DNA from: Candidatus Uhrbacteria bacterium
GTDB lineage: Bacteria > Patescibacteriota > Patescibacteriia > GWA2-47-26
Assembly (NCBI GenBank): GCA_016187515.1
Contig: JACPJN010000007.1
Coordinates: 228,778 to 292,777, forward strand
Length of the DNA: 64,000 nt
Direction of reading: 5' to 3'
The position numbers were made by a program, and so were the translations under genes. This document shows positions 16,737 through 59,651 of the stretch, piece after piece (the stretch's first letter is position 1; each line of letters starts with the position of its first letter). The notes beneath the pieces were generated by a model. The model had not been told where the DNA came from and ran no database searches. It saw only the letters and a program-made list of their open reading frames with translations.

Positions 16737-17335
16737 AGGGCAAGCAATTCGTTAACCAGCTGATCTAAACGCTTGGAGTGGAACTGCTTAACATATTTTT
16801 TAATCCGGGCGCGGTTTAAGGTGGTACTCATGGTTTCGTAATCAAACCGCATTCCCTCCAGGTCGTCGCGAGTCCGTATCGCGCGCGGGTTGAGATAAAA
16901 ATAATCCAGCAATGCTTTTTCAGGGTGCGCAAACAAATACTTACCATGCTTTGTCTCTATATCCCCATATCCCCAAAAAAGTTTGGGTACAATAGTACGG
17001 TAGCTAAACCTGCCAAATTGGTTCGCGATCGTCCGCGTTGGCCGCGTGGTTACCGAAGTGCACACTGCCACCATCTCTGGAATAAACCCATAGTGATGCA
17101 GCGCGTACTCTAAACTAATATAACTTGGTTCATACAGCAGAAACGCGACCTCCTCCGGTATCACCTCTTTCTTACGCGCGGTAAAGACAAAAATCCCGCG
17201 CTGAATTTTTTCAATATCACCCATGCCCTGCCAGCGCGAAAGTTGGTAATCCGGCACCTGGAGATTCCGAATACGCAATTCTGTCCTTGTAAAATAGGGC
17301 TTTTCTATGATTTTAGTAAATTCTCTATATTTCAT
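16715..17335 (-). CDS. type IV toxin-antitoxin system AbiEi family antitoxin
   Basis: 206 aa. Sits immediately upstream of and overlapping the AbiEii gene. N-terminal wHTH-like region (FTRTELRIRNLQVPDYQLSRW), the usual AbiEi architecture. Confidence 0.65.
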   Translation of the reverse strand: MKYREFTKIIEKPYFTRTELRIRNLQVPDYQLSRWQGMGDIEKIQRGIFVFTARKKEVIPEEVAFLLYEPSYISLEYALHHYGFIPEMVAVCTSVTTRPTRTIANQFGRFSYRTIVPKLFWGYGDIETKHGKYLFAHPEKALLDYFYLNPRAIRTRDDLEGMRFDYETMSTTLNRARIKKYVKQFHSKRLDQLVNELLALCSPSRS

Positions 17336-17675
17336 AAACTTAGCAAAAATGATAAGTTACTGAAATACTATAAAATTATCAAAGTCTTGTCAACTGTGGA
17401 TAAAAAAGCCGCCGTGGGGAATTAATCCCGTTGGCGGCAACGCGGCAGGTGCGTGCGACCTGTTATAGCTGTATGGCGGACTCACCCCGTCGGAGACCAC
17501 GAAAAACGGCGGGCGAATCAGTCGGGCATCCTCGCTCACCCGCGCTGACCCCAGATCAAAGAGCGATTCAATTCGCATTACGGCCTCCTTGACGATTGAA
17601 TAATCATCTGCTAACACCCTACCACTGCTCGCCTAAAATGTCAATGCATTGCACTCCCTACTCGACCTCTCCTCA

Positions 17676-31337: not shown

Positions 31338-31937
31338 TTATGGCAATTGGGCTAGGATTTTGCGCTTGAGGCGGGAGAATTGATGAGCGTTAAGGTTGAG
31401 CTCGGGTACTTCTATTGTCTTTTGCAATAATTCGCGCAGACGCTCCGTGTGCGAGGTCAAATTGTGGGCCTTAACGAGCTTCGCGTATAAGCTCCAATCA
31501 ATGCCGGTATTAAGCAATCCGATAATGTCCACGCGATCTTTCTCACCTTTTAAACTATGCCCACGATCGTGCCAGGCATGTTGCTTGAGAATAAGTAAGA
31601 CGGCTTTTCGCGGCAGAGTAAATCCTTCCACCTGCGCAGTATGTTTCTGCACCGTCTCAATCGGGAGTCCCAGATCGGAAAAATACGGGACATAAACATC
31701 CACATCAATTTCTTCAAGATGAATCTCGTATTTCTTTAGTCGATCGTTTTTAAAAAGCTCGTGTTCTTTGCGTAAGCGTTCCAACTCGCCATACGCTACA
31801 ATCACATCAATATCTTTTGATTTCAATTGTTTGGTATATAAATATACTGCCCATCCGCCAATTAAAATAAATTGATGCTGACGTTTGAGGTCTTGAAGCA
31901 TCCTCCAGCTTTTTTCAGTAATGAGCTCATGATACAT
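31338..31937 (-). CDS. minimal nucleotidyltransferase-fold protein (candidate toxin)
   Basis: 199 aa. FILIGGWAVYLYTKQLKSKDIDVIV fits the hG[GS]-x(9-13)-DhD Pol-beta-type NTase motif. Immediately downstream (4 nt) of an HTH protein gene. Confidence 0.45.
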   Translation of the reverse strand: MYHELITEKSWRMLQDLKRQHQFILIGGWAVYLYTKQLKSKDIDVIVAYGELERLRKEHELFKNDRLKKYEIHLEEIDVDVYVPYFSDLGLPIETVQKHTAQVEGFTLPRKAVLLILKQHAWHDRGHSLKGEKDRVDIIGLLNTGIDWSLYAKLVKAHNLTSHTERLRELLQKTIEVPELNLNAHQFSRLKRKILAQLP

Positions 31938-31940
31938 ATC

Positions 31941-32582
31941 TCACAGTTTCATTTTTTCTTTTAGCGCTTCGAGAAATTCTTTGGCATACCAATGCGGGGT
32001 ATTCCAGATATCCACGAAGGTTTGCGCGTCGGACGTCAGGTGCGGCTCCGGCGCGCCCAGAGCATCGGGTTTTAAGACCACCAGATTTTCATAGCCCCTG
32101 GTTTTCGGAAAACGCGCTCTGATCGCGTCCACATCAGGGGCATACACATACACCACGTCATAATCCGCCGGCGCGTCCTTGTAGCGCAGGCGATAGGCGC
32201 TGAAGGCCGCAAAGATCGCGCCGGGAACCATCGCCCCCTCGATTTTTTGTACGGATGCGTCAACGTGGGTGGCATAAAGAATGTCGCGCTTGAGGTTACG
32301 CTGCGTTGCCCAAAGATAAAGCAGTTTTTCCGGATCACGCAGGCGAAAAAATCGTCCGGTTACCTCCACCGCGCCGATCTTGCGCGGGATATCCAGGGCG
32401 TGGTGTACGGTGCTCAAAGAAAACCGAAAGCGCCGCGCCAGCTCTTTTTGCGTAAAGGTTGGCAACTTTTTTGGGCTGGCCGTGTCCAAAATATGGCGCC
32501 AAATTAGCTCTTTTTTGGTCATACCCGGTTTCGATTTCTTTACCCTATTTATAGCTTCATTTCTATTATAATCGAAACTCAA
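31941..32582 (-). CDS. winged-HTH DNA-binding protein (candidate antitoxin/regulator partner of the NTase)
   Basis: 213 aa. N-terminal TQKELARRFRFSLSTVHHAL helix-turn-helix. Gene order HTH then NTase mirrors AbiEi-AbiEii modules. Confidence 0.4.
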   Translation of the reverse strand: MSFDYNRNEAINRVKKSKPGMTKKELIWRHILDTASPKKLPTFTQKELARRFRFSLSTVHHALDIPRKIGAVEVTGRFFRLRDPEKLLYLWATQRNLKRDILYATHVDASVQKIEGAMVPGAIFAAFSAYRLRYKDAPADYDVVYVYAPDVDAIRARFPKTRGYENLVVLKPDALGAPEPHLTSDAQTFVDIWNTPHWYAKEFLEALKEKMKL

Positions 32583-32614
32583 TTTTTTGTCAACCCTGAC
32601 CCATCAGAGCCTGT

Positions 32615-46025: not shown

Positions 46026-46574
46026 TTATATGTCCAACACTCTGATGCCAGGAATCTTTTGAAATCTTTCAACATCGTAGGTGTAGAGTCGGGCTACACC
46101 ATTGCTAAGCATAGTTGCCGCCAGGACTACATCATAAATATGTTTGCTTCCAAACCCGAGTTGTCTCATCAAGTTAATCACATTGTCGTGTACATTCATC
46201 GGCGGCGTAATGAGGGAAAGAGAATCGGCGAGTTTTGTCATTTCGTCCAGCGCCTCGGTAGGTGTAATAGGTTTTGCCACTCGCGCAGGATTGGTTACTA
46301 CTGCGAAAAATTCAAAAAGAATTTGTGGCGCAAGGCAAGCATTCAGTTCACCCTTAGTCGCACGATCAAGTAGTGCGCGACATGTAGTATGATACTCGCT
46401 GTCCGCATTATATGCGTATACGAGTATGTTCGTATCCAACAAAGCAGTATCCGGAGCAATTCCAGATACTGCAGTCGCATTGACCGTTGTGTTCAACCCA
46501 AGGAAAGGTGGGGCCATTCCGCTAGTAAATGTAGTGAATGCAACACTAGCCGAGGGATCAAATGAGCTCTCCAT
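46026..46574 (-). CDS. vapC: PIN-domain ribonuclease, type II toxin VapC
   Basis: ALLDTNILVYAYN first acidic PIN residue, later DVVLAATMLSNG. ORF track start 46586 overlaps the antitoxin. The true start is uncertain: MESS at 46574, or a non-ATG codon nearer LLDTNIL. Confidence 0.65.
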   Translation of the reverse strand: MESSFDPSASVAFTTFTSGMAPPFLGLNTTVNATAVSGIAPDTALLDTNILVYAYNADSEYHTTCRALLDRATKGELNACLAPQILFEFFAVVTNPARVAKPITPTEALDEMTKLADSLSLITPPMNVHDNVINLMRQLGFGSKHIYDVVLAATMLSNGVARLYTYDVERFQKIPGIRVLDI

Positions 46575-46776
46575 AGATCTCGTCACGTGTCAAACGTCCC
46601 TTAAGAGCCCCAAGATGCCAAACCCCAAGCCGGTACTTCTTTTTTGGAAGCACTGTGTTTATCGTAGTAATAGTGACATTAAGGGGCTGTCCCTCGGGGA
46701 GGTCCACTCGTTCCAGTGGTTCAAACACCCCCCCACGAACTTGTACGCGAATTGTCTTAGTTAATGTAGTTGCCAT
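46558..46776 (-). CDS. vapB: VapB-type antitoxin (DUF104-like, IxAxYENGV...LPEG family)
   Basis: ORF 46558..46797; probable start MATTLTKTIRVQVRGGVFEPLERVDLPEGQPLNVTI. Directly upstream of and overlapping the PIN gene. Confidence 0.55.
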   Translation of the reverse strand: MATTLTKTIRVQVRGGVFEPLERVDLPEGQPLNVTITTINTVLPKKKYRLGVWHLGALKGRLTRDEIYGELI

Positions 46777-50988: not shown

Positions 50989-51158
50989 AAAAGCAAATTT
51001 TTGCTCGATCAGCTAGGCGGCCTTGACCCAAAGATGAGCGCAAGGGCGCCCAAATAGAAGAAGCCGATCCTTCGATGAAGGATCGGCACGGAAGAACAGC
51101 TGGATGCGGCGACGCTACATGCCGCGCGCGAGCACGCTGATCGCGCACATCTGGGTCG

Positions 51159-51608
51159 TCAGCGACGGTCCCGCGCCTGCGTCATGACATCTCGGGTCGC
51201 CTTGAGCTCGCCCTGGAGTGCCGCAACCTCCGGCCGGAGGTTGTTGACGGTCTCCCGGAGGTTGTTGACGGTCTCCGTAAGGTGCTGAACGCTCTCATCG
51301 AGCTTGGTGACCTTCTCGCCGAAGGGCTCGATGGCCCGCGAGACCCTGTCCTCGAGGCCCTTGACCGTCGTCCACGCGGTACCTGCGGAAATCATGGCTA
51401 CGGCGACGATCACCGTCGCAAGCCACCACCAGGATGGGCGCGAATCTCGCGTTCCCTTGAATTCCCGACGTTGTAAGTCCACGACGACCGCTCTGAATTC
51501 TGTGATCGCCTGCAACATCACCGCACGTTCTGGCCGCAGCGCTTCCAGAATCTCTCTGACGTCCGACTTGGTAGCCGGCGTTGGCTCGGCCGGTGGCAGA
51601 GGATCCAT
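51159..51608 (-). CDS. GC-rich hypothetical membrane-anchored coiled-coil protein
   Basis: 149 aa. Central TM WWWLATVIVAVAMISAG. C-terminal tandem peptide repeat TETVNNLRETVNNLR. GC well above neighbours. Perfect 11-bp-stem hairpin GCCGATCCTTCgatgAAGGATCGGC downstream at 51061-51086. Confidence 0.5.
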   Translation of the reverse strand: MDPLPPAEPTPATKSDVREILEALRPERAVMLQAITEFRAVVVDLQRREFKGTRDSRPSWWWLATVIVAVAMISAGTAWTTVKGLEDRVSRAIEPFGEKVTKLDESVQHLTETVNNLRETVNNLRPEVAALQGELKATRDVMTQARDRR

Positions 51609-51764
51609 GGGTGCCGTCCTGTCTTGGCGCTGGTCCTCACCTGACCACCAGGGCGCCGTGCCTACTGGTCATGGCGCGGACCCCCGCCGACCACCTCTCC
51701 TTCTATTCAACCACACCGGCAGGATCCGTCAAGGACGCATAAGTTAAGATACATCTTGCACTCC

Positions 51765-51793
51765 TTGTCAAAATGAGAAAATTGTGGTATACT
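51765..51793 (+). promoter_or_regulatory. near-consensus sigma70 promoter giving a leaderless transcript
   Basis: TTGTCA-17nt-TGgTATACT (-35 at 51765-51770, -10 at 51788-51793). ATG of the small protein at 51803, only about 3 nt past the predicted start site. Confidence 0.6.
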
Positions 51794-51802
51794 ATTATTG
51801 TT

Positions 51803-52060
51803 ATGACCATCAATGACTTTATAAAACAGCGCCCGCATCTGATTTGGTATACCAAGAATTATGCCGGTCTTAATGCGGAGGCAATTGTCGAGGCAACGCT
51901 CAATTACGGAAATTGGAAGGACGTACAAACGCTGATAAAAATTATGGGGGTGAAGGAGGTGGCACGCGTCTTTACTACCTACGCGAACCGGCCAAGATGC
52001 AATTATCGTCCTGATATTAAGCATTTTTTTACTCTTTACTTTAAGCGCCATGCCCCGTAG
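51803..52060 (+). CDS. small AbiEi-like wHTH protein (candidate antitoxin), cassette 1
   Basis: ORF 51773..52060, but its first ATG lies inside the promoter spacer, so the start is taken as MTINDFIKQRP. Homologous to the small protein at 54709 (shared L[YW]Y...YG[ND][WL]K..Q...G......R.....YR pattern). Confidence 0.5.
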   Translation: MTINDFIKQRPHLIWYTKNYAGLNAEAIVEATLNYGNWKDVQTLIKIMGVKEVARVFTTYANRPRCNYRPDIKHFFTLYFKRHAP

Positions 52061-52067
52061 TGAAACC

Positions 52068-52679
52068 ATGCATAAAGAAATTCTTACTTCCGAGCAAGTT
52101 GAGCTCTTGCCGCTGGTTGGCTCGTTTTCCAAAGAGTTTGGTTTGGTAGGCGGTACGGCGGTTGCCCTTCAGCTTGGCCACCGGCGTTCCATTGACTTTG
52201 ATCTTTTTTCTTTTAAGGGCTTCAATAATTTAAGCATCAAGCAAAAAATATCGCGGAAACGTAAGATTGATGAAATTTATGTGAACAGAAAAGGGGAGTT
52301 TACTTTTCTGATGAATGGGGTTAAGGTAACTTTTTTTCACTATCCTTTCGAGCTTGATTTTTCAGAGCGGTTTGACCGCGTAATCCGCATGCCGGACCTG
52401 CTGACCCTTGCCGCAATGAAGGCCTATACATTGGGGCAAAGAGCCAAATGGAAAGATTATGTAGATCTGTATTTTATCATGCAAAAATATCATGGCATCT
52501 CGGCAATCGCCGAGAAAGCCGAGACACTCTTCGGCAATGAGTTTAATGAAAAATTATTCCGCACCCAGCTCACATTTTTTCAAGATATTAACTATGCGGA
52601 AAAAGTTGAGTATCTGCCGGGGTTTGAGGTTGAACAACATACCATTGAAAAAGCGCTTGAAAACTACAGCGTAAGTTAG
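52068..52679 (+). CDS. AbiEii/AbiGii-family nucleotidyltransferase (candidate toxin), cassette 1
   Basis: ORF 52050..52679. Start MHKEILTSEQVELLPL at 52068 aligns with the paralog's MHHETIEKK. GLVGGTAVALQLGHRRSIDFDLF NTase motif. Confidence 0.7.
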   Translation: MHKEILTSEQVELLPLVGSFSKEFGLVGGTAVALQLGHRRSIDFDLFSFKGFNNLSIKQKISRKRKIDEIYVNRKGEFTFLMNGVKVTFFHYPFELDFSERFDRVIRMPDLLTLAAMKAYTLGQRAKWKDYVDLYFIMQKYHGISAIAEKAETLFGNEFNEKLFRTQLTFFQDINYAEKVEYLPGFEVEQHTIEKALENYSVS

Positions 52680-52683
52680 GACT

Positions 52684-54216
52684 ATGTCAACTAAAGTTCT
52701 CTCGGTCGCGCTGGTGGGGCTGGAAGCGGCGCAAGTGGAGGTGGAAGCCGGCATTACCTCGGCCCTTACCGCGTTTACGATTGTGGGACTGCCGGATACC
52801 GCGGTTCAAGAAGCGCGTGAGCGCGTGCGTCTCGCCATTAAATCCAGCGATCTGAATTTTCCAACGACTAAAACCACGGTTAACCTCGCGCCGGCGGACG
52901 TAAAAAAGGAAGGGCCAAAGTATGATTTGCCGGTCGCGCTTTCGGTCTTGCTGGCGCACGAAGAATTAAAGCCCGCGGCCGGCCTGGGCCCGAATTTTTT
53001 CGGGCGTTTTTTATTTTTGGGCGAACTCGCGCTTGACGGCCGTTTGCGCCCGGTTTCCGGCGTGCTCCCCGCGGCGCTTTTTGCGGCCGCGCGCGGACTG
53101 GAAGGAATGTTTGTGCCGGAGCAAAACGCGGCCGAAGCCGCGATTATTAAAAAGATCAAAGTGTATCCGGTACGCGATCTGCGCGAACTGGTGGAGCACA
53201 TCCAATGCAATGAACAAATTGAACCGGCGCCGCCCACAGAAGTGGAGCGTGAGCGCGGCCAAATCGAAGTGGATATGGCCTATATTGCCGGGCAAGAGCA
53301 TGCCAAGCGCGCGCTTGAGATTGCCGCGGCCGGACACCATAATGTGCTCATGCACGGGCCGCCCGGATCCGGCAAAACGCTGATGGCCAAGGCCACCGCC
53401 GGACTGCTCCCGCGTCCGTCTTTAGATGAGATGATTGATGTGACGCGGATTTATTCGGTGGCGGGATTGCTTCCGCCCGGAGTGCCGTTAATTACGGAGC
53501 GCCCCTATCGCGCGCCGCACCACAGCGCCTCATCTGCCGCGCTGGTCGGCGGAGGTACCGCGGTCAAGCCCGGGGAGATTACGCTGGCGCACCGCGGCGT
53601 GCTCTTTTTGGATGAACTGGTGGAGTTTCATCGCGACGTGCTGGAATCGCTGCGGGAGCCCTTAGAGAACGGCGCGATTACGATTTCCCGCGCCGCCGGA
53701 TCGCTGCGTTTTCCCGCGAAGTTTATGCTCATTGCCGCGTGCAATCCGTGCCCGTGCGGTTATCTGGGCGACCGGGAAAAACAGTGCGTGTGTATGCCCG
53801 GGGCTGTTGCAAAATATCGGAAAAAACTTTCCGGTCCAATTCAGGATCGCATTGACTTGCATGTGGAAGTGCCGCGGCTTAAATTTGATAAATTAACCTC
53901 GGAGGCAGTGGCCGAGCCATCGGAAACAATCCGCGCGCGCATTGAGAAGGCGCGCGAAATTCAGCGCGCTAGATTTGCGGAGCGCGGGTATGCCGTAAAC
54001 GCCGAAATGCCGGTGCAAGACATAAAAAAATTCTGCGCGGTGGACGCCCAAACGCAAGATGTACTTCGAAACGCCGTAGATCGCCTGCATCTTTCCGCCC
54101 GCGCTTATCACCGCGTGCTCAAACTCTCCCGCACCATTGCCGATCTTGCCGGGGCCGAGCGTATTGAACAGAATCACGTTGCCGAGGCGATAAATTATAG
54201 ACCCAAGAGTGACTGA
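52684..54216 (+). CDS. comM: YifB/ComM family Mg-chelatase-like AAA+ ATPase
   Basis: 510 aa. N-terminal Lon-like domain (VLSVALVGLEAAQVEVEA), Walker A GPPGSGKTLMA, C-terminal zinc motif CNPCPCGY...C. Confidence 0.85.
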   Translation: MSTKVLSVALVGLEAAQVEVEAGITSALTAFTIVGLPDTAVQEARERVRLAIKSSDLNFPTTKTTVNLAPADVKKEGPKYDLPVALSVLLAHEELKPAAGLGPNFFGRFLFLGELALDGRLRPVSGVLPAALFAAARGLEGMFVPEQNAAEAAIIKKIKVYPVRDLRELVEHIQCNEQIEPAPPTEVERERGQIEVDMAYIAGQEHAKRALEIAAAGHHNVLMHGPPGSGKTLMAKATAGLLPRPSLDEMIDVTRIYSVAGLLPPGVPLITERPYRAPHHSASSAALVGGGTAVKPGEITLAHRGVLFLDELVEFHRDVLESLREPLENGAITISRAAGSLRFPAKFMLIAACNPCPCGYLGDREKQCVCMPGAVAKYRKKLSGPIQDRIDLHVEVPRLKFDKLTSEAVAEPSETIRARIEKAREIQRARFAERGYAVNAEMPVQDIKKFCAVDAQTQDVLRNAVDRLHLSARAYHRVLKLSRTIADLAGAERIEQNHVAEAINYRPKSD

Positions 54217-54313
54217 ATCATGCCTGTCTGACAAATCGGGTATGGCCTGAATATAGGCGAGCCCAGCGAGTTGTAGTCAAAAGCCCATATTCTGTATTCT
54301 GTGGCCCATATTC

Positions 54314-54349
54314 TGTCCCAAAATCTCACGGCCGTGAGATTTTGGGACA
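54314..54349. repeat. 36-nt perfect palindrome TGTCCCAAAATCTCACGGCCGTGAGATTTTGGGACA (copy 1)
   Basis: Identical copy at 60673..60708. Both lie just downstream of plus-strand genes. Preceded by a direct repeat GCCCATATTCTGT x2. Confidence 0.8.
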
Positions 54350-54669
54350 ATTTTGAAATGTGTAAAAGTACCGGTTCACTTATGCAACACGAAGACTAAG
54401 CTTCCGGAAAAGTATGGCTGTTGGCAATACAATGCGCGGGACAAGCATCTTTATTATTACCCAAATTTTAAATCACAGACATCGAGGTAACCCTCTCTTC
54501 CGTCATTTCGACCGAGGATCCGACCGCGGTCGGATCGAAGTGGAGAAATCCCACCCCCTGCCATAATGCAAGAGGAATTTTGCAAGCAGTAACAACCCGC
54601 CGCGTCTGCCGGTGCCACAGCACCGAAGCGAAGCGGAGGCATGTGCGTCGGTGGGAGAGGCGGGTCTTT

Positions 54670-54698
54670 TTGACAAACCCGCGATTTTGTGATATCAT
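54670..54698 (+). promoter_or_regulatory. consensus sigma70 promoter giving a leaderless transcript (cassette 2)
   Basis: TTGACA-17nt-TATCAT with TG extension (tgTGaTATCAT). ATG at 54709. Confidence 0.6.
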
Positions 54699-54708
54699 AT
54701 TGTGTAGT

Positions 54709-55029
54709 ATGAAGACCAAACTTCCCAAATCCCTCTACCGTTATTTTTGGGATATTGAACCGGAGAAACTTGACGTGCGCCAATACTCCACCTATGTAAT
54801 TTCACGATTGTTTGAGTACGGTGATCTCAAGTCGATTCAATGGATGCGTAAGACATACCGCACACCGACACTCCGTGCTGCCCTGACCCGACGAGGTCTT
54901 TCACTTAGATCCCGGCACTATTTTGCCCTCCTGTTTGATCAAAAACTTCATAAAATTTTATGCACCACGAAACCATCGAAAAGAAAACTCGCGCTGCTCT
55001 CGAGCTTTTGGGATCGTCGCGACTCCTAA
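54709..55029 (+). CDS. small AbiEi-like wHTH protein (candidate antitoxin), cassette 2
   Basis: ORF 54580..55029, trimmed to MKTKLPKSLYRYFWDIEPEKLDVRQ... directly after the promoter. Its 3' end overlaps the NTase start by about 70 nt (possibly a frameshifted or extended tail). Confidence 0.45.
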   Translation: MKTKLPKSLYRYFWDIEPEKLDVRQYSTYVISRLFEYGDLKSIQWMRKTYRTPTLRAALTRRGLSLRSRHYFALLFDQKLHKILCTTKPSKRKLALLSSFWDRRDS

Positions 55030-55574
55030 ACGATTTTTATCTTGCCGGCGGCACCGGACTTGCGCTCCATCTTGGCCATCGTCTTTCCTACGATCTTGAT
55101 TTTTTTTCTCCCAAAGAGTTCTCACCCCAATCGATGATCATTAAACTTCGAAAGGCGGGACATTTTGCTCTTGACAGTAAAGACAAGGGAACCGTGCACG
55201 GACAATTTGGGGGCGCCAAATTGAGTCTTCTACGCTATCCCTACCCGCTTCTTTTTCGTCCCGCACAATGGTTGGGTATCGCAATCGCGGATCCGCGCGA
55301 TATCGGCTGCATGAAACTTGACGCGATATCCTCCCGTGGCACAAGAAAAGATTTTATTGATCTCTTTTTCCTCCTCAAAACAATCTCATTAAAAGACCTG
55401 CTCGCATTATTTGAGAAAAAATATCGTCGCGTCAGTTATAATCTTGCGCATGTATTAAAAAGCATTGTGTACTTTGAGGATGCGCGGTCAGAGCCGGAAC
55501 CCACTATGCTTCTTCCATACTCCTGGGAAAAAATTGAACGCCTGCTTGAACAGCAAATAAAAACAACCCTATAA
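54960..55574 (+). CDS. AbiEii/AbiGii-family nucleotidyltransferase (candidate toxin), cassette 2
   Basis: 204 aa. FYLAGGTGLALHLGHRLSYDLDFF NTase motif. Paralog of 52068..52679. Confidence 0.7.
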   Translation: MHHETIEKKTRAALELLGSSRLLNDFYLAGGTGLALHLGHRLSYDLDFFSPKEFSPQSMIIKLRKAGHFALDSKDKGTVHGQFGGAKLSLLRYPYPLLFRPAQWLGIAIADPRDIGCMKLDAISSRGTRKDFIDLFFLLKTISLKDLLALFEKKYRRVSYNLAHVLKSIVYFEDARSEPEPTMLLPYSWEKIERLLEQQIKTTL

Positions 55575-55610
55575 ATGGTCGCATTTATCCGCCCGCGCTT
55601 AGCGCGCGGC

Positions 55611-55639
55611 TTGACCTCTGATTTGCAATGTGATAAACT
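55611..55639 (+). promoter_or_regulatory. sigma70-type promoter for the zinc-ribbon miniprotein
   Basis: TTGACC-17nt-TAAACT. AGGAGG Shine-Dalgarno 8 nt before ATG 55660. Confidence 0.45.
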
Positions 55640-55659
55640 GCTGATCAGGAGGTACATCC

Positions 55660-55857
55660 ATGTCCAAAATCGCTCCCCCATTGCCATGGAAAGAGGGTGA
55701 TGCTGACCGGAATCCTGACGAGCTTCAGGAAAGAGGAACCCGGGTCTGCTTCAACTGCGGTGAACCTCGGGTGGTCGGGCAACCGCATCGCTGCGGCGAG
55801 CTGGATGCGCTGGCAAGACCGCGCGAAAAAGCGCCCCCGCAACCCAAGCGGAAGTGA
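55660..55857 (+). CDS. small zinc-ribbon-like protein
   Basis: 65 aa. CFNCGEPRVVGQPHRCGE gives a C-x2-C...H-x-C cluster. Strong RBS and promoter. GC-rich. Confidence 0.4.
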   Translation: MSKIAPPLPWKEGDADRNPDELQERGTRVCFNCGEPRVVGQPHRCGELDALARPREKAPPQPKRK

Positions 55858-55959
55858 CTATTCGGCTCTTTTCAATACTCTCTCAAATCCCTGCGACCGC
55901 TCCGGCGGTCTTTTTTTATTTCGAGCAATTGACCTGATTGACAGGACATGATACAGTAC

Positions 55960-56050
55960 TGTGTACGAATTACGAATCTTGTCCGAATGTTACGAATACA
56001 TTGATTAATGCAAATTCGTAGTATTCGCAGCGTCATTCGTAATTCGTATA
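55960..56050. repeat. long imperfect palindrome of TACGAAT / ATTCGTA heptamer repeats in the infB 5' region
   Basis: gtgTACGAATTACGAATcttgtccgaatgtTACGAATacattgattaatgcaaATTCGTAgtattcgcagcgtcATTCGTAATTCGTAtac. Also a 10-nt perfect palindrome ACAGTACTGT at 55953-55962. Confidence 0.7.
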
Positions 56051-56054
56051 CAAT

Positions 56055-59000
56055 ATGAACGTTACTGAACTCGCTCGTCGGCTTAAAGTGTCTCCGCAAG
56101 AGCTTCGGGAAATGCTCCCGGCGCTTGGTTTTGATATTGGCATGCGCGCGGTTAAAGTTGACGATCGGACGGCCTGGCGCATTATTGAGCAGTGGCCGCA
56201 ATTGCGCCGCCAATGGCAGACCCTGAAGCAAAAAGAAGACGTGGCCAAAGTCGCCGAGGTGGCCAAGGCCGCCCAGGAGGTAGAGCTTCCCGCGATGATG
56301 ACTGTCCGCGAATATGCCGCCTATCTGGGACTCCCGATTGCCCGAGTGATCTCCGAACTGATGAAAAACGGGATTTTGGCGGCCATGAATGAACGCCTGG
56401 ACTTTACAACGGCTTCCATCATCGCGCAGGATTTGGGCTTCAAGATCAAAGAAAAAACCAAACCAACCTCCATCGAGGAAGAGGTAATCTCCGATGTAAT
56501 CCGTGAGCGGCTCGGTCAAGAGACCGCCGAGCAGCTTAAAGAGCGTCCGCCGGTAGTGGTCGTTATGGGCCATGTTGATCACGGCAAGTGTATTACCGGC
56601 GATACTGAAATTGTGTTGGGGAATGGTGAATTAAAAACGGCTCAGGCATTTTGGGAGGAAGAAACTGCCACGCAATCTCCAATTGCTTCACCTGATGGTG
56701 AAGGTGAATTTGTTGCGCCTCGCTCAAATATCAGCACCATGAGTTATGACCCAGACAGCCATACCATGAAAGCTTCTAAAATTGAGGCGCTGTGGAGGAT
56801 GCCAGCGCCTCAAGCGCTTACTGAAATTAGGCTGCGCTCGGGTGATAAAGTAACGACCACGCCAGAGCACCCCTTCTTTGTGACAGACCTTTCGGGCGAC
56901 ATCAGGCAAGTACCAGCCCAAAATATCTCTGAGGGGCAGTTTGTGATTATTCCTCAAAAATTACCCACGCACAATACTCTCGAAAAATTAGCTCATGAAA
57001 TCATAGAAAGACTTGGCAAGAGCAAAGATTTACTTATTCTTCTTCACAAAACACGGGGTAAAGACTTTCTCACGCGCCTGGAATCAGCCAATAAACAAGA
57101 ATTGTTACGCCAAGGTATACTTTCTACAAAACCACGTTCAAAACAGTATGGACTAAGGAGATTGCGCGCCAGGGATTATATTCTTCTTGGTCGTAAGTGG
57201 CGCTACTGCGACTATGAACTGTGGGAAAGTGTTGAAGCCATAAAACATGCTTCAGAAAAACAAAGAGCATCTCACAAGAGCTTCTTTATACGCTTTCCTC
57301 AACCCAGTGATGACTTACGACAACTCGGATATATTATGGGATGCCTGGCTGGTGATGGTCATATTCCAACAATGCAACTTTCCAATAACGACGGTGATAT
57401 TCAAGAAGCCTATAAGGAAGCGCTGGAAACAATCTTTGGCATCACGACTACCAAATACTCCTACGCAGGCGCGTGTGATACTATCGTCACAACTGGCGGC
57501 GAATCTTTAGCTCGATTCATGTTCGAGATAGCGGGCTTTCCCAGAAAGCAAAAAAGCGCTACTATCACCCTCCCTGTAATCGCACAAATAAATTCGGATA
57601 TCTTTCGCGGCTTCATCGAAGGGTGGTTCGATACTGACGGATATGTATCACCGTTTAATTGGTGGGTAGAAATCACCAGCAAAAGTCACGCGCTGGTACA
57701 ACAATGCGCCACACTCTTACTGCAGGATGAAATTCATAGTGTGATTGCTGAAAAGAAGGGGTTTTTTACCTTGCGGATTGCCAACGAACCTTATCTTTCC
57801 AAGTTTGCCTCTGTCTATCACCCTTGCTGCATGAGAAAAGTCTCCAGATTGGCAGATGCCGTGCACCATGCGGGCACGAGCCGTATTTTTGATCTGACGC
57901 CACTCTCCGGGGGTAGTCTTTTATCTCAAATCAACGTACGAGGGGGTAATAAGACGGTGCCTTTCTTAAGTCGCTATCGAGATTATAGTCAACTGTCACG
58001 GCCATTTTTGCAAGGCTTATTGCCCAACGTCACTCCTCAGAGTGTCGCGGTACTGGACAGAATTAAACCCTGGCTGACAAGCGAGATAAGTTTAGTTCCT
58101 GTCATATCAGTCAGACAGGTGCCGCCCGGTGATGCTTTTGTCTATGATTTCACCGTACATAAAACTCATACCTTTATTGGAAATAGGATTGTACTCCATA
58201 ACACCAAATTGCTCGATGCCATTCGCAAAACTAATGTCGTGGCTACGGAAGCCGGCGGAATTACCCAGCATATCGGCGCTTATCAAACCGTCCGGCACAA
58301 CCGCAAAATTACCTTCATTGATACCCCCGGACACGAGGCCTTTACCACCATGCGCAGCCGCGGGGCGCGGGTGGCGGATGTCGCTATTTTAGTGGTGGCG
58401 GCCGACGATGGGGTCCAGCCGCAAACCGTGGAAGCGCTAAACATCATCAACGCCGCGAAAGTTCCGTTTGTGGTCGCCGTGAATAAAATGGACAAACCGG
58501 AGGCCAGCGCAGACAAAGTAAAACGCGAACTTTCGGAAAAAGGAGTAATCCCGGAGGATTGGGGCGGCAAAACTCCTTTCGCACCCATCTCGGCGAAATC
58601 CGGCCTGGGGATTGACGCGCTTCTGGATGTCATCCTCTTGGTCGCCGACCTGGAGAAAGAAAAAATCACGGCCAATCCGGAGGCGCGAGCGCTCGGCACC
58701 ATTATTGAGGCCCACGTTTCCCCGGGCGAGGGCGCGGTCGCGACTATGCTGGTCCAAAACGGAACTTTAAAAGTCGGCGATGCGCTGGCTGTGGGCCACT
58801 CACTCTACGGCAAAGTCCGCGCGATGAAGGCCTGGGACGGCGCGCTGGTTAAAACCGCCCCGCCCGGAATGCCGGTGCGCATCCTGGGGTTCAAGGTTGC
58901 TCCGGAAGTCGGAGACATCGCGGAGGTGCCGGAAAATCCCAAACTGCTCGAACTTAAAAAAGCCCGTCCAACTTTTGAAAAACTGGTGATTAGTCCTTTC

Positions 59001-59651
59001 AACACCCGGACGGAAGAAGAAATTAAGGCCCAAACCCTGATTAATGTGGTAATCAAGACCGACGTGCTTGGCTCGCTGGAGGCCATCCTGGCGAAATTGG
59101 AGCAACTGCAGACCCCGGAGGTCGCGGTAAAAGTCGTGGCTAAAGGACTGGGTAACATTACGGAAGCCGAGATTCTCCAGGCCGAGTCCTCCAAAGCCAT
59201 TGTCTATGGCTTTCAGGTGATCGCCCCGCCGGCCGTCCTGGAACTCGCGCGAGAAAAAAGCGTGGAGATTCAAATGTATAAAATTATTTACGAACTGCTT
59301 GACGACATTAAAGGCCGCTTGGAGGTGCTGCTGAAACCGGAAATTCTGCGCATTGCTTTGGGGAAACTAAAAGTCCTGGCGGTGTTTCGAAAAGAGCGGC
59401 ATCATGCTATTATAGGAGGACGGGTGGAGGAGGGCAAAGCCGTTAAAAAAGCCAGGGTAACGATCATGCGCGCGGGCGCCGAGGCCGGAGGCGGCGAGAT
59501 TACGGAATTGCAATCCGCTAAACAGGCGGTCTTGGAAGTGCCCGGCGGTTCGCAGTGCGGTCTGAAAATCAACACCAAAGCTGAAATTCAGGAAGGGGAC
59601 GTGCTCGAGCTGTACCGCGAAGAGAAAAAAGAGCGCAAACTTGCGCTTTGA
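56055..59651 (+). CDS. infB: translation initiation factor IF-2 precursor interrupted by an intein in the GTPase P-loop
   Basis: 1198 aa. G1 motif GHVDHGK split after K178 by CITGDTEIVL...FIGNRIVLHN, then TKLLDAIRKTNV resumes IF-2. Downstream G motifs DTPGHEAF and NKMDK. C-terminal IF-2 domains present. Extein about 660 aa. Confidence 0.9.
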   Translation: MNVTELARRLKVSPQELREMLPALGFDIGMRAVKVDDRTAWRIIEQWPQLRRQWQTLKQKEDVAKVAEVAKAAQEVELPAMMTVREYAAYLGLPIARVISELMKNGILAAMNERLDFTTASIIAQDLGFKIKEKTKPTSIEEEVISDVIRERLGQETAEQLKERPPVVVVMGHVDHGKCITGDTEIVLGNGELKTAQAFWEEETATQSPIASPDGEGEFVAPRSNISTMSYDPDSHTMKASKIEALWRMPAPQALTEIRLRSGDKVTTTPEHPFFVTDLSGDIRQVPAQNISEGQFVIIPQKLPTHNTLEKLAHEIIERLGKSKDLLILLHKTRGKDFLTRLESANKQELLRQGILSTKPRSKQYGLRRLRARDYILLGRKWRYCDYELWESVEAIKHASEKQRASHKSFFIRFPQPSDDLRQLGYIMGCLAGDGHIPTMQLSNNDGDIQEAYKEALETIFGITTTKYSYAGACDTIVTTGGESLARFMFEIAGFPRKQKSATITLPVIAQINSDIFRGFIEGWFDTDGYVSPFNWWVEITSKSHALVQQCATLLLQDEIHSVIAEKKGFFTLRIANEPYLSKFASVYHPCCMRKVSRLADAVHHAGTSRIFDLTPLSGGSLLSQINVRGGNKTVPFLSRYRDYSQLSRPFLQGLLPNVTPQSVAVLDRIKPWLTSEISLVPVISVRQVPPGDAFVYDFTVHKTHTFIGNRIVLHNTKLLDAIRKTNVVATEAGGITQHIGAYQTVRHNRKITFIDTPGHEAFTTMRSRGARVADVAILVVAADDGVQPQTVEALNIINAAKVPFVVAVNKMDKPEASADKVKRELSEKGVIPEDWGGKTPFAPISAKSGLGIDALLDVILLVADLEKEKITANPEARALGTIIEAHVSPGEGAVATMLVQNGTLKVGDALAVGHSLYGKVRAMKAWDGALVKTAPPGMPVRILGFKVAPEVGDIAEVPENPKLLELKKARPTFEKLVISPFNTRTEEEIKAQTLINVVIKTDVLGSLEAILAKLEQLQTPEVAVKVVAKGLGNITEAEILQAESSKAIVYGFQVIAPPAVLELAREKSVEIQMYKIIYELLDDIKGRLEVLLKPEILRIALGKLKVLAVFRKERHHAIIGGRVEEGKAVKKARVTIMRAGAEAGGGEITELQSAKQAVLEVPGGSQCGLKINTKAEIQEGDVLELYREEKKERKLAL
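56589..58202 (+). mobile_element. intein (538 aa) with double-motif LAGLIDADG homing endonuclease
   Basis: Begins with Cys (block A CITGDTEIVLGNG), block B TTPEHPFFV, ends VLHN before extein +1 Thr. LAGLIDADG motifs YIMGCLAGDGHI and GFIEGWFDTDGYV. Confidence 0.85.

Follow-up and report, generated by a model that had tools for sequence, protein, structure and literature searches.

Nucleotidyltransferase (NTase) toxins of the DUF1814 type, among them AbiEii and MenT, are a current focus of toxin-antitoxin (TA) research, and unrelated antitoxins appear to converge on induced auto-phosphorylation of these toxins. They are recognised by four motifs, comprising hG[GS]x9-15DhD plus an Arg (motifs I-II), a Lys in a KLxAaxxR-like context (motif III) and +DxxD (motif IV) (Dy et al., PMC3985639). 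MenT1 of Mycobacterium tuberculosis (195 amino acids (aa), PDB 8AN4) pairs with a 68-aa helical antitoxin that has no DNA-binding domain (PMC10435456). T39 of MenT1 and S78 of MenT3 are the auto-phosphorylation sites by which unrelated antitoxins neutralise these toxins, and MenA1, MenA3 and AbiEi, which are structurally unrelated antitoxins, have been reported to induce auto-phosphorylation at S/T-x-D (PMC11375011; bioRxiv 10.64898/2026.01.19.700257). TA transcripts in M. tuberculosis are predominantly leaderless (PMC8485053, PMC3898074). Here we analyse two gene cassettes in a 64,000-nucleotide (nt) stretch of a Candidatus Uhrbacteria bacterium genome (assembly GCA_016187515.1, contig JACPJN010000007.1, positions 228,778 to 292,777), referred to below as the window and numbered from its first letter. 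We propose, with a probability of about 0.65, that each cassette is a two-gene TA-type module of a widespread uncharacterised kind, with a DUF6922 protein as the putative antitoxin and a short (~204 aa) DUF1814/AbiEii/MenT NTase as the putative toxin.

A sequence-only reading of the window had described the cassettes as small proteins followed by AbiEii-type NTases, and all open reading frames (ORFs) were present as given, forming non-identical pairs of a small protein and an AbiEii-family NTase. Cassette 1 consists of small1 (51803-52060, + strand), an 85-aa protein with an isoelectric point (pI) of 9.8, and NTase1 (52068-52679, +; 203 aa). Cassette 2 consists of small2 (54709-55029, +; 106 aa, pI 10.4) and NTase2 (54960-55574, +; 204 aa). 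At 85 and 106 aa the small proteins are far shorter than AbiEi, as had been noted. The start of small1 was placed at 51803 rather than at the ATG at 51773 on the basis of family lengths of 84-88 aa and the family N-terminus MTIxDFIK. Conservation and predicted local distance difference test (pLDDT) scores ruled out the possibility that the small ORFs are spurious.

Both NTases belong to the Pfam AbiEii family (PF08843; NTase1 38.5 bits, NTase2 48.1 bits, cutoff 22.5), and pairwise alignment bore out their proposed homology (33% identity, E = 7e-19). The motifs quoted for them in the sequence-only reading, GGTAVALQLGHRRSIDFDLF and GGTGLALHLGHRLSYDLDFF, were both found. NTase1 carries VGGT-x-HRRS-I-D-F-D, MKAYTLGQR (motif III) and KDYVD (motif IV); the corresponding segments of NTase2 are AGGT-x-HRLS-Y-D-L-D, MKLDAISSR and KDFID. 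All four DUF1814 motifs are thus present in both proteins, as hGG-x13-DhD with the motif-II Arg, K-x6-R and KDxxD. Alignment of the two NTase subfamilies revealed eight invariant positions (G28, G29, R39, S41, D43, K118, D130 and D133) and two nearly invariant ones (D45 and R125, 90% or more). The invariant Ser, S41, lies two residues before the first catalytic Asp, D43 (RS-I-D-F-D and LS-Y-D-L-D), a position equivalent to T39 of MenT1, where the first Asp is D41, and to S78 of MenT3. The NTase1 family has the N-terminus MHKEIL, and NTase2 is 100% identical to a Candidatus Uhrbacteria protein annotated at NCBI as 'nucleotidyl transferase AbiEii/AbiGii toxin family protein'. A HEPN/MNT TA system was rejected: the conserved small-protein columns contain no Rx4-6H, there is no HEPN Pfam match, and the NTase is of the DUF1814 type.

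The annotation of these NTases bears on a second explanation, in which the cassettes would serve strictly in abortive-infection (Abi) phage defence, triggered by infection, and not as chromosomal addiction or stress TA modules. PADLOC AbiEii models match both NTases, and relatives carry the Joint Genome Institute (JGI) label 'nucleotidyltransferase component of viral defense system'. Both the window and its relatives have in addition collected several TA and Abi modules, and the founding AbiE is an Abi system (PMC3985639). The PADLOC matches are weak, however (E 1e-5 to 1e-6), and no PADLOC model matches the small proteins. We consider a strictly defensive role unlikely; it is compatible with TA behaviour, so that it refines the TA explanation more than it competes with it. 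Scans of IMG/VR viral contigs with both small-protein families returned no relatives, which leaves a phage origin unsupported.

Comparison of the small proteins gave a divided result. The homology claimed for them was not detectable by pairwise alignment (BLASTP E = 11) but was recovered at the profile level. Small2 is a member of Pfam DUF6922 (PF21956; 51 bits, cutoff 27 bits), in line with the precomputed Pfam annotation of its relatives, and small1 scores below the cutoff (18.9 bits). Alignment of small1 with the DUF6922 family by hhalign gave E = 7.6e-4 when the profiles were shallow; when the DUF6922 alignment was deep, the small1 family was related to it with a probability of 87% (E = 4e-6, 59 columns). 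Judged by this match and by a predicted helix order shared with small2, small1 is a divergent DUF6922 relative and not a formal Pfam member. As homology between the small proteins appears only at the profile level, the two cassettes are, on this comparison, old and diverged relatives that do not stem from a recent duplication. The PF21956 model spans 52 positions, omits the last helices and the conserved ILC...W tail, and puts small1 and most of its 200+ relatives under threshold. We identified 207 small1 homologues at E<=1e-3, nearly all of 84-88 aa, and relatives of small1 in 284 GTDB species, all of them Patescibacteria-type metagenome-assembled genomes. A profile of small2 relatives found 1901 clusters (50% identity) among 1.8 billion proteins, mostly stand-alone proteins of 75-105 aa, and the NTase2 family exceeds 6400 clusters at 90% identity. 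The description of the cassettes as a 'minimal AbiE variant' is therefore too narrow for what is a distinct and widespread module.

Nor did the small proteins prove to be winged-helix-turn-helix (wHTH)-like, as had been suggested. AlphaFold2 models (pLDDT 93.3 for small1 and 85.3 for small2) share the order of five helices and have no beta-strand; the last ~25 residues of small2, which hold the family motif ILC...W, are of low confidence. DNA-binding domains occur separately, fused before DUF6922 in rare proteins: HTH_17 in one, HTH_3 in two and HTH_11/DeoR-like in one. The usual modular antitoxin combines a DNA-binding domain with a neutralising domain. The presence of a separate HTH domain in these fusions points to DUF6922 as the neutralising module rather than the DNA-binding one.

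These models also bear on the idea that each cassette is a canonical AbiE in miniature, the small protein being a truncated AbiEi-like wHTH repressor-antitoxin with inverted repeats of its own promoter as binding sites. The gene order and overlap do resemble abiEi-abiEii (PMC3985639), and the small proteins are basic. An AbiE system is defined by a COG5340/AbiEi partner with an N-terminal wHTH and a C-terminal antitoxin domain, and neither small protein has this architecture. We regard this explanation as quite improbable, and return to it with the promoters below.

The DUF6922 profile also weakly matched Pumilio PUF repeats (summed E 4e-4, best single repeat 9 bits), the site of likeness being YVIxRLLEyGD in DUF6922 and GNYVIQHVLEHG in Pumilio. 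We treat this likeness as a lead only. It is the starting point for an explanation without any TA pair, in which the NTase would modify RNA or tRNA as a regulated enzyme, with DUF6922 as its PUF-like RNA-binding or specificity subunit, and the pair would have a housekeeping or recombination-linked role beside comM or ruvAB. The PUF match itself (summed E = 4e-4), the pI of about 10 of the small proteins and the lack of relatives in viral contigs all speak in its favour, as do features of the gene neighbourhood described below. Within the TA explanation, a more remote option is that a PUF-repeat-like DUF6922 core binds RNA and so links neutralisation to the tRNA substrate.

We examined the pairing of the two genes across genomes. 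In the cassette-1 survey, 80 GTDB loci were fetched through the small1 family and 78 were assessable; in 71 of these the next gene downstream, in the same orientation, is an intact NTase1-type gene of at least 190 aa (phmmer E 1e-62 to 1e-87). Of 14 metagenome loci assessable for the cassette-2 family, 13 carry the NTase2-type gene intact, and one has it frameshifted. The reverse search gave the same result: all four NTase2 relatives tested, Atribacteria included, are preceded by a 100-101-aa DUF6922 gene that overlaps the start of the NTase gene by 52-67 nt. At two loci in other Patescibacteria genomes both cassette types are adjacent, in tandem in one (L030, 2020-3900) and convergent in the other (L033), and each small gene is accompanied by its own NTase type. 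Because each small protein pairs only with its own type of NTase, the two cassettes probably coexist without cross-talk. At a further locus (L032, 2301-3014) a third AbiEii-like type of 224 aa lies directly upstream of the cassette-1 pair.

Decayed loci were also identified. In nine, the small gene is intact and the NTase gene is truncated or absent, and in two fusion proteins DUF6922 is joined to an NTase fragment, the C-terminal half, from which the catalytic GG...DxD part is missing. This pattern of decay fits a toxic NTase with a harmless partner, which is the arrangement that the TA explanation predicts; we consider the reading of the pair as an RNA-modifying enzyme and its specificity subunit very doubtful. 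The public gene calls of two loci (L109 and L115) omit the DUF6922 ORF upstream of the NTase. Gene callers often miss the small overlapping ORF, and these NTases are consequently widely annotated as orphan toxins.

Each cassette is preceded by a sigma70-type promoter. P1 (51765-51793, +) consists of TTGTCA, a 17-nt spacer and a TG-extended TATACT (10/12 match), and P2 (54670-54698, +) of TTGACA, a 17-nt spacer and a TG-extended TATCAT (11/12 match). They are the top sigma70 matches in the region 51000-56200, which holds 13 such sites compared with 4.2 +/- 1.7 in shuffles. The -10 box ends 9 nt (P1) and 10 nt (P2) before the ATG, in agreement with the sequence-only reading. This geometry is not confined to the window. 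In the cassette-1 family a -10-like hexamer ends 5-9 nt before the ATG in 43 of 70 distinct upstream regions, peaking at 6 nt (22 loci, of which 18 are TG-extended; 0-4 loci at each other position), and most loci of the cassette-2 family show the same geometry, both in the Uhrbacteria relatives and in distant members, including Atribacteria. The suggestion that the promoters are placed for leaderless or nearly leaderless transcripts is thus backed by a geometry conserved in dozens of species and across phyla, and a bicistronic mRNA with no leader, or with a leader of at most a few nt, has comparative support in both cassettes.

When the whole window was scanned for a good -35 box and a good -10 box followed 5-10 nt downstream by the ATG of a real ORF, three sites were recovered, upstream of small1, small2 and a VapB-like gene at 46776. 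All three convincing leaderless-type promoter sites in the window therefore precede antitoxin genes, and the VapB-like antitoxin promoter (TTGTCA-17-TATCAT, 9 nt, ATG) has the same design as those of both cassettes. A Shine-Dalgarno (SD)-like motif lies within 20 nt upstream of 7 of the 34 confidently placed gene starts in the window, and SD pairing appears to play little part in translation initiation in this organism. A literature search for leaderless translation in Patescibacteria gave only a passing remark on YchF.

The promoters were also compared for signs of autorepression, as the AbiE-in-miniature explanation would have it. Across five related loci (the window, L005, L009, L090 and L094) the 17-nt spacer of P2 is almost invariant, and both the sequence upstream of P2 and the stretch between the -10 box and the ATG diverge. 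Among 70 cassette-1 promoters, inverted repeats with arms of at least 6 nt were mildly enriched (36% of loci compared with 13% of mononucleotide shuffles), which is a point for that explanation. These repeats share no common position or sequence across the 70 loci, and we claim no operator from them.

The junction between the two genes differs between the families. In the cassette-1 family it is typically ATGCATAA, in which the NTase ATG overlaps the stop of the small gene by 8 nt; 43 of 79 loci show this junction, and its geometry recurs in a further 9. The window junction (52041-52079) is atypical, with the stop followed by 7 nt and then ATGCATAAAGA. An in-frame ATG at 52050 overlaps the end of small1 by 11 nt, which would make NTase1 209 instead of 203 aa; together with the atypical junction, this leaves the start of NTase1 ambiguous. 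In cassette 2 the first 70 nt of NTase2 overlap the end of small2 in another frame. Such out-of-frame overlaps span 43-76 nt in the cassette-2 family, most often 52 nt, and the small2-type tail encoded in the overlap carries a conserved [IV]LC...W motif. The conservation of this motif shows that the long overlap is a genuine conserved feature and not a mis-called ORF.

From these data we propose the following model. A strong sigma70-type promoter close to the first ATG would, on sequence and comparison, give a bicistronic mRNA with no leader or one of a few nt. The NTase would be translated by coupling to the antitoxin ORF, through the 8-nt ATGCATAA overlap in the cassette-1 family or the long out-of-frame overlap in the cassette-2 family, and the leaderless start and overlapping junction would together keep the antitoxin in excess. 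By analogy with MenT and AbiEii, the NTase would add nucleotides to tRNA 3' ends and so arrest translation. DUF6922, again from knowledge of the family, would bind the NTase directly and neutralise it; this may occur by blocking the active site, by induced auto-phosphorylation of S41, or by both. A more specific version can be put forward tentatively, and we think it less probable than the general model: DUF6922 would be an unrecognised, widespread class of antitoxin for short DUF1814 NTases with a fold of its own, acting by direct binding and induced S41 auto-phosphorylation. It would represent a third structural solution after MenA1 and AbiEi/MenA3, and the leaderless start and the 8-nt or ~52-nt overlap would set the antitoxin:toxin ratio in place of autorepression.

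Several observations weigh against this proposal. Sequence searches of all PDB chains with NTase1, NTase2 and a joint profile returned nothing useful, so the assignment of a MenT/AbiEii mechanism rests on Pfam and PADLOC scores and motifs. A literature search found no paper that mentions DUF6922, and no function or partner for it; the basic character of these proteins, together with the palindrome noted below, leaves room for binding of DNA or RNA. The survey of decayed loci is biased and one-sided, as most loci were found through the small gene. With respect to the leaderless start, the distances of 9-10 nt in the window lie at the long end of the family distribution, and at this spacing a leader of 2-4 nt and a strictly leaderless start are equally likely; most genes here have no SD motif, which makes its absence from the cassettes uninformative. 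Finally, the conserved P2 spacer holds an imperfect palindrome, CAAAnnCGCGnnTTTG, a possible candidate operator for some regulator and a further point in favour of a miniature AbiE.

The two cassettes flank comM/yifB (52684-54216, +), a context gene outside both modules that encodes an Mg-chelatase-like AAA+ ATPase. It matches TIGR00368 over its full length (582 bits, YifB family) and Pfam Mg_chelatase (301 bits). NTase1 ends 4 nt before the comM ATG, and comM may on this account be transcribed from P1. In the window and in its close relatives L009, L005, L090 and L091, cassette 2 is found downstream of comM; in contrast to this linkage of cassette 2, the 80 cassette-1 loci all lack a nearby comM. 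Among close relatives, TA-type genes have been gained and lost around comM. In L090 (737-2631), whose small2 is 90% identical, an extra pair stands between comM and cassette 2, consisting of a 206-aa protein without a Pfam match at the position of an AbiEi partner and a 425-aa AbiEii (82 bits). At the same position between comM and cassette 2, L005 carries an unknown gene of 172 aa; in L009 the place of cassette 1 is taken by an unknown gene of 231 aa.

The sequence-only reading had linked comM to an integration hotspot. Gene content does vary among relatives, yet we found no integrase, transposase, tRNA or direct-repeat boundary at comM; the gene is intact, and the linkage holds for cassette 2 only. 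As far as these comparisons go, the association with comM is lineage synteny with local flux, limited to cassette 2, and the hotspot idea gains at most soft support. The neighbourhood was also weighed for the explanation in which the NTase is an RNA-modifying enzyme. The 4-nt distance between cassette 1 and comM, the synteny of cassette 2 and comM in relatives, and the presence of ruvA or ruvB near NTase2-type genes all lend it some support. The NTase2-type gene abuts ruvA in L110 (2615), and ruvB is nearby in L112 (3980). Adjacency of the NTases to recombination or branch-migration genes was seen at three loci only and may be coincidence.

Downstream of comM we identified a perfect 18+18-nt palindrome without a loop (54314-54349, not assigned to a strand), directly preceded by a tandem 21-nt imperfect direct repeat (54272-54313). 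The palindrome is probably a terminator-like element and may insulate cassette 2 from comM. In an Rfam scan of 51000-56200 it gave only sub-threshold miRNA noise.

For the window as a whole, it is reasonable to count five TA-like modules in 64 kb, as the sequence-only reading did, although one of them has weak support. The canonical AbiEii (257 aa, 71.9 bits) has an AbiEi_4-like partner (20.2 bits) that is sub-threshold in Pfam and NCBIfam. The canonical AbiEi gene has a consensus TTGACA-17-TAGTAT promoter (17335-17400, -) with a leader of ~30 nt. The pair at 31338-32582 comprises a DUF6036-like NTase (20.7 bits) and an HTH-like partner, both sub-threshold. Its promoter (32560-32600, -) is TTGACA-17-TATAAT, and the TTG of the -35 box is the 'longest ORF' start, which places the true start of the HTH gene further downstream. 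A VapC/PIN toxin gene (46026-46586, -; Pfam 42.6 bits, NCBIfam 72.5 versus 73.6) and an AF2212-like antitoxin gene (46558-46776, -; Pfam 32.5 bits) complete this set. In addition, infB (56055-59651, +; 1198 aa), encoding IF-2, contains an intein with a LAGLIDADG homing-endonuclease domain, as judged from the precomputed Pfam list of the identical-length product at L115 (Intein_splicing, LAGLIDADG_3 and IF-2).

If the proposed TA module is real, it would provide a third unrelated and very abundant partner family for DUF1814 NTases, and with it a natural test of the generality of toxin auto-phosphorylation. A Pfam DUF, and with it a large sister group currently outside Pfam, would gain a function, and the module would show how several insulated copies of one toxin family are carried by the ultra-small genomes of Patescibacteria. 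Together, the conserved leaderless promoter and the frame-overlapping junction would offer a simple model of dosage control without a DNA-binding antitoxin.

Comparison with known systems identifies MenAT1 of M. tuberculosis (MenA1 Rv0078B / MenT1 Rv0078A) as the closest characterised analogue. Both combine a short DUF1814 NTase (195 residues in MenT1, 203-204 here) with a very short helical antitoxin whose gene comes first (68 aa in MenA1, 85-106 aa here). In both, the phospho-acceptor position lies two residues before the first catalytic Asp (T39/D41 in MenT1, S41/D43 here), and the catalytic Lys and Asp are shared. In contrast, profile searches of the PDB (E<=10) gave no sequence match between DUF6922 and MenA1, and DUF6922 is predicted to form a compact five-helix domain, whereas MenA1 is a two-helix V, and the NTases described here are too diverged to match MenT1 by sequence. 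The long out-of-frame gene overlap and the distribution across the candidate phyla radiation (CPR) and Atribacterota belong to this module and not to MenAT1. AbiE of Lactococcus and Streptococcus agalactiae is similar in having a toxin in PF08843 with motifs I-IV and a bicistronic operon in which the antitoxin gene is first and the genes overlap (PMC3985639). It differs in its antitoxin: AbiEi has two domains, belongs to COG5340 and autorepresses by means of an N-terminal wHTH and inverted repeats, compared with a single-domain DUF6922 protein without a wHTH here. The NTases also differ, ours falling about 50-90 aa short of a typical AbiEii. In mycobacteria, leaderless TA operons likewise place the antitoxin first, with its start codon at or next to the transcription start (PMC8485053, PMC3898074). 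In the cassettes described here, this arrangement is deduced purely from promoter geometry and its conservation, and the host belongs to a Patescibacteria lineage in which genes are mostly without SD motifs.

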